This document shows, piece after piece, positions 3,600 to 49,564 of a stretch of DNA of 64,000 bases. Under the pieces are notes generated by a model. The model was not told the origin of the DNA and made no database searches. It saw nothing but the letters and a program-made list of their open reading frames with translations. A program made the translations under genes and the position numbers. Source of the DNA: Escherichia coli. GTDB taxonomy: Bacteria > Pseudomonadota > Gammaproteobacteria > Enterobacterales > Enterobacteriaceae. The stretch lies in NCBI RefSeq assembly GCF_003790525.1, contig NZ_CP033635.1; one strand, given 5' to 3'. Positions within the stretch are counted from its first letter, which is position 1. Every line of letters starts with the position of its first letter.

Positions 3600-4229
3600 A
3601 TGCTTAAGCCAGACAACCTGCCCGTTACATTTGGCAAAAACGATGTAGAAATTATTGCACGAGAAACACTTTATCGCGGCTTTTTTTCATTAGATCTTTA
3701 TAGATTTCGTCATCGTCTATTCAACGGGCAAATGAGTCATGAGGTACGGCGGGAAATTTTTGAGCGCGGTCACGCCGCAGTCTTGCTACCCTTTGACCCA
3801 GTACGTGATGAAGTTGTGCTGATTGAGCAGATTCGAATTGCCGCGTACGACACTAGCGAAACCCCCTGGCTACTGGAGATGGTTGCCGGGATGATTGAAG
3901 AGGGTGAAAGTGTGGAAGATGTTGCCCGTCGCGAAGCGATTGAAGAGGCGGGGCTGATAGTCAAACGGACCAAACCGGTGTTAAGTTTCCTGGCAAGCCC
4001 GGGGGGCACCAGTGAGCGTTCGTCAATTATGGTGGGCGAAGTGGACGCCACGACCGCAAGCGGTATTCACGGTCTGGCTGATGAAAACGAAGATATTCGC
4101 GTTCATGTGGTAAGCCGGGAACAGGCATACCAGTGGGTAGAAGAGGGGAAAATCGACAACGCAGCGTCGGTCATCGCTTTGCAATGGCTGCAGCTGCATC
4201 ATCAAGCGTTAAAAAATGAGTGGGCATAA
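3600..4229 (+). CDS. nudF: ADP-ribose pyrophosphatase (Nudix hydrolase)
   Basis: 209 aa ORF with Nudix box region ([22 protein letters not shown]); divergent from tolC as in E. coli. Confidence 0.92.
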
Positions 4230-45766: not shown

Positions 45767-46807
45767 TCATTTATCGGAAGACGCCTGCCACAGATTCAGC
45801 TCGCCATCGGCGATATGCTGATCAATCTGCGCCAGCTCCTCGGTGCTAAATGTCAGATTATTCAGCGCCTGCACGTTCTCCTCAAGTTGCTCCGCGCGGC
45901 TGGCACCAATCAATACCGACGTCACGCGATCATCTTTCAGCAACCAGCTTAACGCCATTTGCGCCATTGATTGTCCACGCTGCTGTGCCATTTCATTCAA
46001 TAACCGCAGGCTGTTGAGGTTGGCTTCGGTGAGCATTTTCGGCGTCAGACCACGAACTTTATTCCCTTCACGATGCATCCGTGAATCTTGCGGAATGCCG
46101 TTGAGATATTTTCCGGTCAGCAATCCCTGAGCCAGAGGAGTAAAGGCAATGCAGCCCACGCCGTTATTTTGCAGGGTATCCAGCAGGCCGCTTTTATCCA
46201 CCCAGCGGTTCAGTAAATTGTACGAAGGTTGATGAATTAACAGCGGAATTTTCCACTCGCGCAGTAACTCGACCATTTTTTGCGTCCGCTCTGGCGAGTA
46301 AGAGGAGATCCCGACATACAGCGCCTTACCGCTTTGTACCGCATGAGCCAGCGCAGAGGCGGTTTCTTCCATCGGCGTATTTTCATCGACGCGATGAGAG
46401 TAAAAGATATCGACATACTCAAGCCCCATCCGCTTCAGGCTTTGGTCGAGGCTGGCGAGCAGGTATTTACGTGAACCGCCAGAGCCGTAAGGGCCGGGCC
46501 ACATATCGTAGCCAGCCTTGGTAGAGATAATCAGTTCATCGCGATAAGCGGCAAAATCCTCCCGCAGCAGGCGACCAAAGTTCTCTTCTGCGCTTCCTGG
46601 AGGTGGCCCGTAATTGTTGGCTAAATCAAAGTGCGTAATGCCCAAATCAAACGCTTTACGCAGGATCGCACGCTGTGATTCCAGCGCGTTAACGTGACCG
46701 AAATTGTGCCATAAACCGAGCGATAACGCGGGCAGGCGTAAACCGCTTTTTCCGCAATAGCGGTACTGCATCTGCCCGTAACGTTCGGGATTCGCTAACC
46801 AGACCAT
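45767..46807 (-). CDS. yghZ: L-glyceraldehyde 3-phosphate reductase (aldo-keto reductase)
   Basis: 346 aa AKR ORF recognised as YghZ. Confidence 0.9.
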   Translation of the reverse strand: MVWLANPERYGQMQYRYCGKSGLRLPALSLGLWHNFGHVNALESQRAILRKAFDLGITHFDLANNYGPPPGSAEENFGRLLREDFAAYRDELIISTKAGYDMWPGPYGSGGSRKYLLASLDQSLKRMGLEYVDIFYSHRVDENTPMEETASALAHAVQSGKALYVGISSYSPERTQKMVELLREWKIPLLIHQPSYNLLNRWVDKSGLLDTLQNNGVGCIAFTPLAQGLLTGKYLNGIPQDSRMHREGNKVRGLTPKMLTEANLNSLRLLNEMAQQRGQSMAQMALSWLLKDDRVTSVLIGASRAEQLEENVQALNNLTFSTEELAQIDQHIADGELNLWQASSDK

Positions 46808-46963
46808 GACCTCTCCTTTCCACCGTTCAATTTCGAAACAATGTTTCTAGTTTAGCGATTCGCCAGCGCGTATCCCGTAGTCTGGCTCACAGAGTGACGA
46901 AAAACTGGGCGAAAACACGTGCTTATGCTTTGCTTAAAAAAACACCAGTTGAGGAGTGCAACG

Positions 46964-47851
46964 ATGCCGCGTTTAACCGCCAAAGATTTCCCACAAGAGT
47001 TGTTGGATTACTACGACTATTACGCTCACGGGAAAATCTCGAAACGTGAGTTCCTCAACCTTGCGGCGAAGTATGCGGTAGGCGGGATGACGGCATTAGC
47101 GTTGTTTGATTTGCTCAAGCCAAATTATGCGCTGGCGACTCAGGTAGAGTTTACCGACCCGGAGATTGTTGCTGAGTACATCACGTATCCTTCGCCAAAT
47201 GGTCACGGCGAGGTACGGGGTTATCTGGTGAAACCCGCAAAAATGAGCGGCAAAACGCCAGCCGTGGTGGTGGTGCATGAGAATCGTGGACTGAATCCGT
47301 ATATCGAAGATGTGGCACGGCGAGTGGCGAAGGCGGGGTATATCGCCCTGGCACCTGACGGCTTAAGTTCCGTTGGAGGTTATCCGGGAAATGATGATAA
47401 AGGTCGTGAGCTGCAACAGCAGGTTGATCCAACCAAACTGATGAATGATTTCTTTGCCGCAATTGAGTTTATGCAACGCTATCCGCAAGCGACAGGCAAA
47501 GTGGGTATTACCGGATTTTGCTATGGCGGTGGCGTATCGAACGCGGCGGCTGTCGCGTATCCGGAACTGGCCTGCGCGGTGCCGTTTTATGGTCGCCAGG
47601 CACCCACTGCCGATGTGGCGAAGATTGAAGCGCCTTTACTACTCCACTTCGCGGAACTGGACACCCGAATCAACGAGGGCTGGCCTGCTTACGAGGCGGC
47701 GTTGAAAGCCAATAATAAGGTTTATGAGGCGTATATCTATCCGGGGGTTAATCACGGATTCCATAATGATTCCACGCCCCGTTATGACAAATCTGCCGCC
47801 GATCTTGCCTGGCAAAGGACACTGAAATGGTTCGATAAATATCTCTCCTGA
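46964..47851 (+). CDS. yghX: dienelactone hydrolase family protein YghX (intact)
   Basis: ORF 46919-47851 trimmed to ATG at 46964 preceded by GAGGAG; uninterrupted in this sequence; hydrolase motif GFCYGG. Confidence 0.8.
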   Translation: MPRLTAKDFPQELLDYYDYYAHGKISKREFLNLAAKYAVGGMTALALFDLLKPNYALATQVEFTDPEIVAEYITYPSPNGHGEVRGYLVKPAKMSGKTPAVVVVHENRGLNPYIEDVARRVAKAGYIALAPDGLSSVGGYPGNDDKGRELQQQVDPTKLMNDFFAAIEFMQRYPQATGKVGITGFCYGGGVSNAAAVAYPELACAVPFYGRQAPTADVAKIEAPLLLHFAELDTRINEGWPAYEAALKANNKVYEAYIYPGVNHGFHNDSTPRYDKSAADLAWQRTLKWFDKYLS

Positions 47852-47969
47852 TAGGTTTATCTCTTACGGGATTACGTCTTAAACAAGCATGAAAAAATAG
47901 CGTGCGCAAAAGTCGTTCTTTGCCTAAAATATCGCTATATATGACAATATATAGCGAATGAGGTGAACG

Positions 47970-48257
47970 ATGAATAACCATTTTGGTAAAGGCTTAATGG
48001 CGGGATTAAAAGCAACGCATGCCGACAGTGCGGTTAATGTGACAAAATACTGTGCCGATTATAAACGCGGTTTTGTATTAGGCTACTCGCACCGGATGTA
48101 CGAAAAGACCGGAGATCGCCAGCTCAGCGCCTGGGAAGCGGGTATTCTGACGCGCCGCTATGGACTGGATAAAGAGATGGTAATGGATTTCTTTCGTGAG
48201 AATAATTCCTGTTCTACGTTGCGCTTTTTTATGGCCGGTTATCGCCTCGAAAATTGA
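47970..48257 (+). CDS. yghW: DUF2623 family protein YghW
   Basis: 95 aa ORF recognised as YghW. Confidence 0.85.
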
Positions 48258-48445: not shown

Positions 48446-49564
48446 ATGACTGGAGATAACACCCTCATCCATTCTCACGGCATTAACCGTCGTGATTTCA
48501 TGAAGCTTTGTGCAGCATTAGCCGCCACCATGGGGTTAAGTAGCAAAGCCGCTGCAGAGATGGCCGAATCGGTTACTAACCCGCAGCGTCCGCCAGTTAT
48601 CTGGATTGGCGCGCAGGAGTGCACCGGTTGTACGGAATCTCTGCTTCGTGCAACGCATCCAACGGTAGAAAACCTCGTGCTGGAGACTATCTCTCTGGAG
48701 TATCACGAAGTGCTTTCCGCCGCCTTCGGTCATCAGGTCGAAGAGAACAAACATAACGCACTTGAGAAGTACAAAGGGCAGTATGTGTTGGTTGTGGATG
48801 GTTCCATCCCATTAAAAGATAACGGTATTTATTGCATGGTTGCTGGTGAGCCGATTGTGGATCACATCCGCAAAGCGGCAGAAGGCGCAGCAGCGATTAT
48901 CGCTATCGGTTCCTGCTCTGCGTGGGGCGGTGTTGCCGCAGCTGGAGTTAACCCAACTGGCGCAGTCAGCCTGCAAGAAGTTCTGCCAGGCAAAACCGTT
49001 ATCAATATTCCGGGCTGCCCGCCGAACCCGCACAACTTCCTCGCGACCGTTGCGCACATCATCACTTACGGCAAACCGCCGAAACTGGATGACAAAAATC
49101 GTCCGACCTTCGCCTATGGCCGTCTGATTCACGAACACTGCGAACGTCGCCCGCACTTCGATGCTGGTCGTTTTGCCAAAGAGTTCGGTGATGAAGGCCA
49201 CCGCGAAGGCTGGTGCCTGTACCACCTCGGCTGTAAAGGGCCAGAAACTTACGGCAACTGCTCAACGCTGCAATTCTGCGATGTTGGCGGTGTGTGGCCG
49301 GTGGCGATTGGTCACCCGTGCTATGGCTGTAACGAAGAAGGTATCGGCTTCCATAAAGGCATCCATCAGCTTGCCAACGTCGAAAACCAGACTCCGCGTT
49401 CACAGAAACCGGATGTTAACGCTAAAGAAGGCGGCAACGTCTCGGCAGGCGCTATTGGTTTGCTCGGCGGTGTGGTTGGGCTGGTTGCCGGTGTCAGCGT
49501 GATGGCGGTTCGTGAACTGGGTCGTCAGCAAAAGAAAGATAACGCTGACTCACGGGGAGAATAA
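48446..49564 (+). CDS. hybO: hydrogenase 2 small subunit
   Basis: 372 aa; Tat signal ([16 protein letters not shown]), [NiFe] hydrogenase small-subunit Cys motifs. Confidence 0.95.

Follow-up and report, generated by a model that had tools for sequence, protein, structure and literature searches.

An intact yghX gene in Escherichia coli encodes a predicted cysteine-triad hydrolase with a candidate export leader, of which K-12 YqhI is the remnant

The stretch of Escherichia coli DNA analyzed here (64,000 nucleotides, referred to as the window) carries on its plus strand a single open frame at positions 46964..47851 which, according to the open reading frame list and its translation, runs from an ATG at 46964 through 295 sense codons to a TGA at 47849-47851, with a TAG directly 3' of this stop. 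A Shine-Dalgarno-like GAGGAG (46951..46956, plus strand) is located 7 nt 5' of the ATG and is the same in K-12. The original prediction had described an uninterrupted reading frame over this interval, preceded by a GAGGAG ribosome-binding site, and both can be read straight from the sequence. The open frame itself, the NCBIfam model NF041440, the Pfam DLH model and RefSeq all mark the interval as the coding sequence of a YghX family hydrolase (295 amino acids plus the TGA). Its DNA is 100% identical to the yghX annotated in RefSeq for strain CFSAN061771 (WP_001137768.1), and over positions 40000-64000 the window matches E. coli SMS-3-5 and a small number of other strains at 100% identity. A start at an alternative GTG, in frame at 46919, would lengthen the frame by 15 codons. 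We place the start at 46964 because orthologs begin there and residue 3 of the protein is the first one covered by the NCBIfam model; in orthologs from six genera, the first residue is the equivalent of this ATG (M-P/T-R-L-T-A-K-D-F).

The gene is flanked by gpr/yghZ (45767-46807, minus strand), which is divergent from it, and by yghW (47970-48257) and hybO (48446-49564), and the order gpr <> yghX - yghW - hybO was found both in the window and in RefSeq strains. A simple promoter scan of the gpr-yghX spacer returned no consensus sigma-70 site, a terminator scan 3' of yghX found none, and the surroundings of the gene are free of chlorocatechol or other aromatic-degradation genes. A conserved partner gene, chaperone or operon was considered for yghX and rejected, as the neighborhoods differ across relatives and none is shared; in E. 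coli the gene lies beside yghW and hyb, in Enterobacter beside a chemoreceptor gene, and in a metagenomic relative beside GFA, HNH and OYE genes. Since the neighborhoods differ and yghX looks monocistronic everywhere, yghW does not qualify as a conserved partner. Plasmid carriage of yghX was likewise rejected: three records labeled as plasmids are of chromosome size (4.8-4.9 Mb) and the fourth is a 354-kb, non-mobilizable record, so that these records provide no evidence for mobility of the gene. The yghX of the window is best described as a single-gene unit divergent from gpr that preserves the intact ancestral allele.

Judged by its sequence, this open frame is a genuine yghX gene and no chance ORF. 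The protein scored 587.3 bits against NF041440 ("YghX family hydrolase"), for which the curated cut-off is 460 bits, with residues 3-294 covering model positions 1-292 of 292, and the Pfam DLH model (PF01738, gathering threshold of 21 bits) matched residues 84-294 at 164.8 bits over model positions 1-217 of 217. Equivalences with the residues of ClcD, the dienelactone hydrolase of Pseudomonas, were counted through a HMMER alignment to the ClcD variant 4u2c (C123S, with Ser at position 123). By this alignment, the catalytic nucleophile is Cys186 (codon TGC, 47519..47521, plus strand), which lies within the motif G-F-C-Y-G-G, an elbow of the form Sm-x-Cys-x-Sm, and corresponds to ClcD position 123; it does not vary among enterobacterial orthologs and is conserved to at least 90% in a diverse alignment. 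The triad acid is Asp233 (GAC, 47660..47662, plus strand; Asp171 of ClcD), which is invariant or at least 90% conserved, and the base is His264 (CAC, 47753..47755, plus strand; His202 of ClcD), invariant in enterobacterial orthologs, while Glu106 (GAG, 47279..47281, plus strand), the equivalent of Glu36 of the Pseudomonas enzyme, is invariant in orthologs. Because a cysteine is aligned at the nucleophile position, the nucleophile of YghX is Cys and not Ser, in agreement with earlier work (PMC11878206; PMC8533429), including the description of PDB entry 4ZV9 as a protein in which the triad serine is replaced by cysteine (PMC11878206). Of the catalytic Ser/Asp/His named in the original prediction, the Asp and the His are thus present, but Ser is absent and Cys186 stands in its place.

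The predicted fold is consistent with this assignment. An AlphaFold2 model of YghX superimposed on 4ZV9 with a TM-score of 0.98 and an rmsd of 1.1 Å, and on the Pseudomonas dienelactone hydrolase 1DIN with a TM-score of about 0.84 (normalized to the target). Sequence and model together place YghX among the alpha/beta-hydrolases of the dienelactone-hydrolase family, with a predicted Cys186-Asp233-His264 triad and Glu106. In the mechanism that we propose, Glu106 would activate the cysteine of the Cys186-His264-Asp233 triad as in Pseudomonas ClcD, and the predicted reaction would be hydrolysis of an ester, a lactone or a thioester.

Several solved structures can be set beside YghX. The nearest is 4ZV9 (EcoDLH), deposited as an "uncharacterized protein" of O157:H7 Sakai, which comprises YghX residues 59/60-294 at about 98-99% identity; the construct is devoid of the 58/59-residue leader and differs at V69F and S135N. 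When purified, this protein had no phosphotriesterase activity, being inactive on paraoxon and FDDEP, and its cysteine was oxidized or modified in the crystal (bioRxiv 10.1101/2025.10.30.685675). After 4ZV9, the closest relative of known structure is the putative dienelactone hydrolase 3F67 of Klebsiella pneumoniae, which shares the G-F-C-x-G-G elbow and the H-x-F motif, although identity is 27% and its 241-residue chain aligns from YghX residue 82 and lacks a YqhI-like leader. ClcD of Pseudomonas knackmussii (1DIN; EC 3.1.1.45) has the same fold and equivalent Cys123, Asp171, His202 and Glu36 residues, but shares only about 25% identity with YghX. ClcD, encoded in a clc operon, has no leader and acts in the cytoplasm in the breakdown of chlorocatechol, whereas yghX is monocistronic and its product carries a 58-residue leader. 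An older prediction had listed yghX as a possible cPHB polymerase candidate on account of a GxCxG motif (PMC3709699). Our search of the literature found no functional study of YghX; the mentions that it returned concern use of the gene as an integration site, the cPHB prediction and the negative phosphotriesterase assay. That the allele in the window is functional we infer from its intact, invariant catalytic residues and from the O157 protein, which folds and crystallizes.

In K-12 MG1655 (NC_000913.3), yghX is annotated as the pseudogene b4658, which overlaps a 47-amino-acid coding sequence, yqhI (b4755). The locus is the same (gpr <> yghX - yghW - hybO) and 99% identical, but K-12 carries two deletions that the window lacks, and only the 47-residue product is made. 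One is a loss of 2 bp at codon 37 (47072..47073 in the window, plus strand), which is also deleted in related strains, and the other a loss of 1 bp at codon 157 (47433..47433, plus strand). The statement in the original prediction that K-12 yghX is a frameshifted pseudogene was hence right as to the pseudogene, but the alignment maps two deletions rather than one frameshift. Since the two deletions sum to -3, the frame is wrong only from codon 37 to codon 157, and within this segment the shifted frame contains stops. The remaining differences between the window and K-12 over the ORF number 8, all of which are synonymous by alignment, and K-12 yghX with the 3 missing bases restored in silico encodes a protein identical to the YghX of the window. 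The identity of the repaired protein and the purely synonymous differences indicate that the loss in K-12 is recent and has been followed by no further decay.

These deletions also account for YqhI. The K-12 protein (47 amino acids) consists of 36 native YghX residues followed by 11 out-of-frame residues, and the 36-residue Pfam family PF23678 ("YqhI-like") matches YghX residues 1-36. YqhI has been detected as a protein by chromosomal tagging in K-12 (PMC6001520), and its published sequence and detection by tag show the frameshift to be genuine and the promoter and ribosome-binding site of yghX to be active. By comparison of the sequences, the "small protein" YqhI of K-12 is the stump of the YghX leader. 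We found no paper in the literature searched that connects yqhI with the yghX pseudogene, and the recognition that YqhI and PF23678 represent the YghX leader has some novelty.

The intact gene is the common state, and its presence here is unremarkable. Of 5,426 complete E. coli genomes, 5,414 contain the 1.2-kb yghX locus at a coverage of at least 80%. Most E. coli genomes lack the K-12 deletions, and O157:H7, O104:H4, ST131 and ATCC 11775 have a yghX of undeleted length; one strain has the gene interrupted by IS1. The 84-mer that covers the 2-bp deletion in K-12 was found, as an exact match, in at least 1,247 of the 5,426 genomes (at least 23%) and the 85-mer that covers the 1-bp deletion in at least 1,197 (at least 22%), counts which are lower bounds because variants with SNPs, such as strain LST200A, go uncounted. 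Because the identity bands are blurred by SNPs close to the deletion sites, the frequency of the 2-bp deletion was also estimated from evenly spaced samples of the rankings, which put it at roughly 25-30% of the collection. Laboratory derivatives of K-12 are abundant among these genomes, and none of these percentages is therefore a natural frequency. Deleted alleles are flagged as "frameshifted" by PGAP. In two strains, WP4-S18-ESBL-08 and S1-JOR-02-A, the K-12 haplotype bears the 2-bp deletion but not the 1-bp deletion. Such strains give the order of events: in K-12 and a large related clade, the 2-bp deletion at codon 37 came first and the 1-bp deletion at codon 157 later.

Outside E. coli, orthologs from Citrobacter koseri, Pseudescherichia, Enterobacter, Kosakonia, Leclercia and Silvania are 294-299 amino acids long, 85-92% identical and collinear from Met1, and at 100% query coverage the ORF in the window is not truncated relative to them. 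The ortholog of Enterobacter mori is syntenic (yqhA-gpr<>yghX), and wherever 12 orthologs from six genera agree without exception, YghX has the consensus residue as well. The intact outgroup orthologs, the synteny in Enterobacter mori, the E. coli majority and the 2-bp-only intermediates all lead to the conclusion that intact yghX is the ancestral allele, as the original prediction had held for this strain, and also the majority one. We regard it as nearly certain that the window contains an intact, ancestral yghX encoding a predicted dienelactone-hydrolase-family enzyme with a cysteine triad.

The first 58 residues (46964..47137, plus strand) form a leader in which an N-extension is followed by a Tat-like motif, then by a stretch of weak hydrophobicity and finally by A-L-A. 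It lies outside the dienelactone-hydrolase fold, given that ClcD aligns from YghX residue 70 and 4ZV9 begins at about residue 60. The N-extension (T-A-K-D-F-P-Q-E-L-L-D-Y-Y-D-Y-Y-A-H-G-K-I) precedes S-K-R-E-F-L (codons 26-31, 47039..47056, plus strand), which resembles a twin-arginine motif with Lys-Arg (K27-R28) as its basic pair. The motif is followed by Y-A-V-G-G-M-T-A-L-A-L-F and then by K-P-N-Y-A-L-A / T-Q, in which A-L-A (codons 56-58, 47129..47137, plus strand) is a putative signal-peptidase site. In the 12 enterobacterial orthologs, K27, R28, F30 and L31 are invariant, and the A-L-A site is invariant in enterobacterial orthologs as well; in the diverse alignment, R28 is invariant and F30 at least 90% conserved. 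Over positions 11-31 and 53-61, the leader reaches the same degree of conservation as the catalytic domain. An exhaustive search of 1.84 billion cluster representatives gave 4,885 relatives of YghX at E<=1e-10, and leader statistics were taken from those 75 of the best 150 relatives (50%-cluster representatives) whose N-terminus bears the leader motif. Among these 75 leaders, the basic pair is RR in 61, KR in 13 and RK in 1, and an A-x-A follows downstream of the pair in 68. Their uncharged run, in which Ala, Leu, Gly, Val, Thr and Ser abound, has a median length of 15 residues and a mean hydropathy of 1.56. The consensus of the conserved N-extension and motif reads L-x-x-L-Y-D-x-Y-x-H-G-x-I-x-R-R-x-F-L. 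In YghX itself, the uncharged run is Y37-F48, 12 residues between K36 and D49; the 15-residue segment 37-51 has a hydropathy of 1.55, compared with 1.22 for the Tat signal of HybO encoded in the same stretch of DNA.

The Tat-like features suggest that the leader may direct export. In the model that we slightly favor on sequence grounds, residues 1-58 would be an export signal of the Tat type in which a Lys-Arg pair occurs naturally and which has a conserved N-extension of about 20 residues, and the mature enzyme of about 26 kDa would work in the periplasm. Compared with the Tat motif S/T-R-R-x-F-L-K, YghX (S-K-R-E-F-L) lacks the consecutive Arg-Arg, while the other features of a Tat signal are found in F30-L31, the uncharged Y37-F48, K52-P53 and A56-L-A58. 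A single Arg to Lys exchange in the Tat motif is tolerated, and TtrB of Salmonella, whose Tat-like motif (x-K-R-x-F-L) has the Lys-Arg seen in YghX, is a natural KR cargo, described as the only native one known (PMC6708511; PMC1182353). TtrB is however an Fe-S subunit for which Tat export is experimentally established, whereas in YghX export is deduced from sequence and the leader has a long conserved N-extension. The Tat profiles TIGR01409 and PF10518 gave no match to the leader in the window even at E<=10, and against eight homolog leaders with Arg-Arg all profiles stayed below threshold (TIGR01409, 15.6 versus 16.7; PF10399, 20.4 versus 24; TIGR02811, about 15 versus a cut-off of 48). As no profile matched above its cut-off, we do not claim membership of YghX in a Tat signal family; nor did the literature searched contain a paper linking the YghX family to Tat export. 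We put even odds on the broader proposal that YghX-family hydrolases are Tat-exported periplasmic enzymes whose enterobacterial branch uses KR, and that YqhI/PF23678 would be their leader and not an independent family.

Taken as a whole, the best explanation is an intact ancestral yghX encoding a cysteine-triad enzyme of the dienelactone-hydrolase family, lost in K-12 and, somewhat more likely than not, exported by means of its leader; to this explanation as a whole we assign a probability of roughly 85%. Its main competitor concerns the leader, which might instead be a folded three-helix cap or regulatory module on a functional cytoplasmic enzyme, the resemblance of RR/KR-x-F-L and A-x-A to a Tat signal being a coincidence. 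In the AlphaFold2 model, the YghX leader forms three helices of high confidence (pLDDT 90-95), and a homolog whose leader is of the classical Ala-rich kind has the same three-helix layout (pLDDT 79-95); such a confident fold, here in two divergent members of the family, is atypical of signal peptides and, as far as models go, argues against a signal. The same reading gains from the domain-level conservation of residues 11-31 and 53-61, with H22 and Y20 invariant or nearly so, from the Tat HMMs, none of which reached its cut-off, and from the shortness of the E. coli hydrophobic stretch, with its 12 uncharged residues. However, the positions conserved in the leader are those of the Tat consensus (the second Arg invariant, the first R or K, and Phe at +2), the stretch between them is of low complexity (Ala, Gly, Ser, Thr and Leu), freely variable and the least conserved part, and Pro and A-x-A follow at a fixed distance. 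Furthermore, the protein without residues 1-59 is a complete and soluble dienelactone-hydrolase fold, and an equivalent of the module occurs in no solved dienelactone hydrolase; a fold search, too, retrieved no solved structure with an equivalent of the YghX leader. We therefore consider a cytoplasmic cap possible but less likely than export. With export retained as the preferred reading, the three-helix leader might serve, to judge from the models, as a docked pro-segment or as a chaperone or proofreading site, and the Tat-like leader with its KR pair, marked conservation and confidently modeled fold is a part of this work with some novelty.

Two further explanations bear on the gene as such. 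One is that yghX, although open, is decaying in the lineage of the window as well, being silent or crippled by missense changes, so that the word "functional" would be wrong. A large clade of E. coli has lost the gene at no apparent cost, and this, together with the IS1 loss in one strain and the simple scan that found no consensus promoter, would fit such a view. Yet the consensus residues, catalytic ones included, have all been kept at the positions invariant in the 12 orthologs, each of the 8 differences from the K-12 haplotype is silent at the protein level, the promoter and ribosome-binding region drives detectable synthesis of YqhI in K-12, and the locus itself has been kept in all but 12 of the complete genomes, and we regard ongoing decay as very improbable. 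The other is that the difference between the window and K-12 is an artefact, either an error in the K-12 sequence or a reversion or recombination in the strain of the window. Deletions that sum to -3 do superficially resemble alignment or assembly noise, but exactly the same deletions recur in about 1,200 independently sequenced genomes, natural intermediates have the 2-bp deletion only, YqhI tagged at its shifted-frame end was seen as a protein, and the frame is intact in the outgroup genera. The recurrent deletions, the intermediates, the YqhI protein and the intact outgroups refute this explanation, to which we attach next to no probability.

In summary, an intact yghX is in itself already known from RefSeq annotation, a dedicated NCBI model, a crystal structure and the use made of the K-12 pseudogene, and its finding here carries little weight for biology at large. 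Within the species, K-12 is the exception, and most E. coli strains, to judge from their genomes, encode a complete and probably active enzyme. In strain engineering, K-12 yghX is widely used as a neutral site for integration (PMC7677707), and because K-12 is the exception, conclusions drawn there about a "neutral integration site" or a "new small protein YqhI" are not transferable to most E. coli. If export proves true, YghX would be a second native KR Tat cargo besides TtrB, useful for studies of motif tolerance, and it would have been missed as a Tat substrate because the reference strain K-12 carries the pseudogene; the list of E. coli Tat substrates, compiled on K-12, would then be short by one member.

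The small K-12 protein YqhI (b4755) is made up of residues 1-36 of YghX followed by 11 frameshifted residues, and the corresponding part of yghX lies at 46964-47071 in the window and at 3147597-3147740 in K-12 (NC_000913.3). Given this composition, the Pfam family PF23678, named 'YqhI-like', is therefore a model of the YghX leader. The paper on YqhI gave a match to a glycosyltransferase domain and did not mention that YqhI is an N-terminal remnant of YghX (PMC6001520). In the AlphaFold2 model of the window protein, the putative signal or leader (residues 1-58, window 46964-47137) was predicted with very high confidence (pLDDT 90-95) and contains three helices, at residues 11-21, 27-37 and 44-51. 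The leader of a distant homolog, P0137, was likewise modelled by AlphaFold2 with high confidence as three helices, and among 32 diverse homologs the leader residues H22 and R28 are invariant.

Beyond the leader, the crystallized YghX of O157:H7 Sakai (4ZV9) differs from the window protein by V69F and S135N (codons 69 and 135; window 47168-47170 and 47366-47368). All 12 orthologs compared, which come from six genera, have Ser at position 135, so Asn135 of the O157 protein represents a lineage-specific change at an otherwise fixed position.

Downstream of yghX, a perfect inverted repeat with 11-nt arms (TCGCTATATAT-GACA-ATATATAGCGA) occupies 47932-47957 and ends 13 nt before the yghW start codon at 47970; the K-12 copy is identical. 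A constitutive yghW promoter, TTGCCT-17-GACAAT, has been described (PMC3946193), and the repeat overlaps its -10 hexamer, GACAAT. The repeat resembles an operator.

Over the 24 kb from 40000 to 64000, the window shows 100% identity with E. coli SMS-3-5 (NC_010498.1) and with a small number of further strains, and at least 99% identity to this segment was found in only 34 of 5,426 complete genomes; the window therefore belongs to a lineage that resembles SMS-3-5 and is distant from K-12. Three PLSDB 'plasmid' records of 4.8-4.9 Mb (NZ_OL790696.1, NZ_CP141089.1 and NZ_CP134663.1) contain yghX; they are apparently chromosomes that were entered in the plasmid collection by mistake.

In strain IAL7255 (NZ_CM130730.1) yghX is reduced to its last 96 nt (4002-4097 of the extracted locus L005), moved beside mdtM and directly adjoined by an IS1 copy; this loss is an independent, IS-mediated event. 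The alleles of WP4-S18-ESBL-08 and S1-JOR-02-A (465-1350 in both L003 and L006) have the K-12 haplotype and carry the 2-bp deletion without the 1-bp deletion. They are natural intermediates, and the 1-bp deletion is therefore a second lesion, acquired after the gene had already died.
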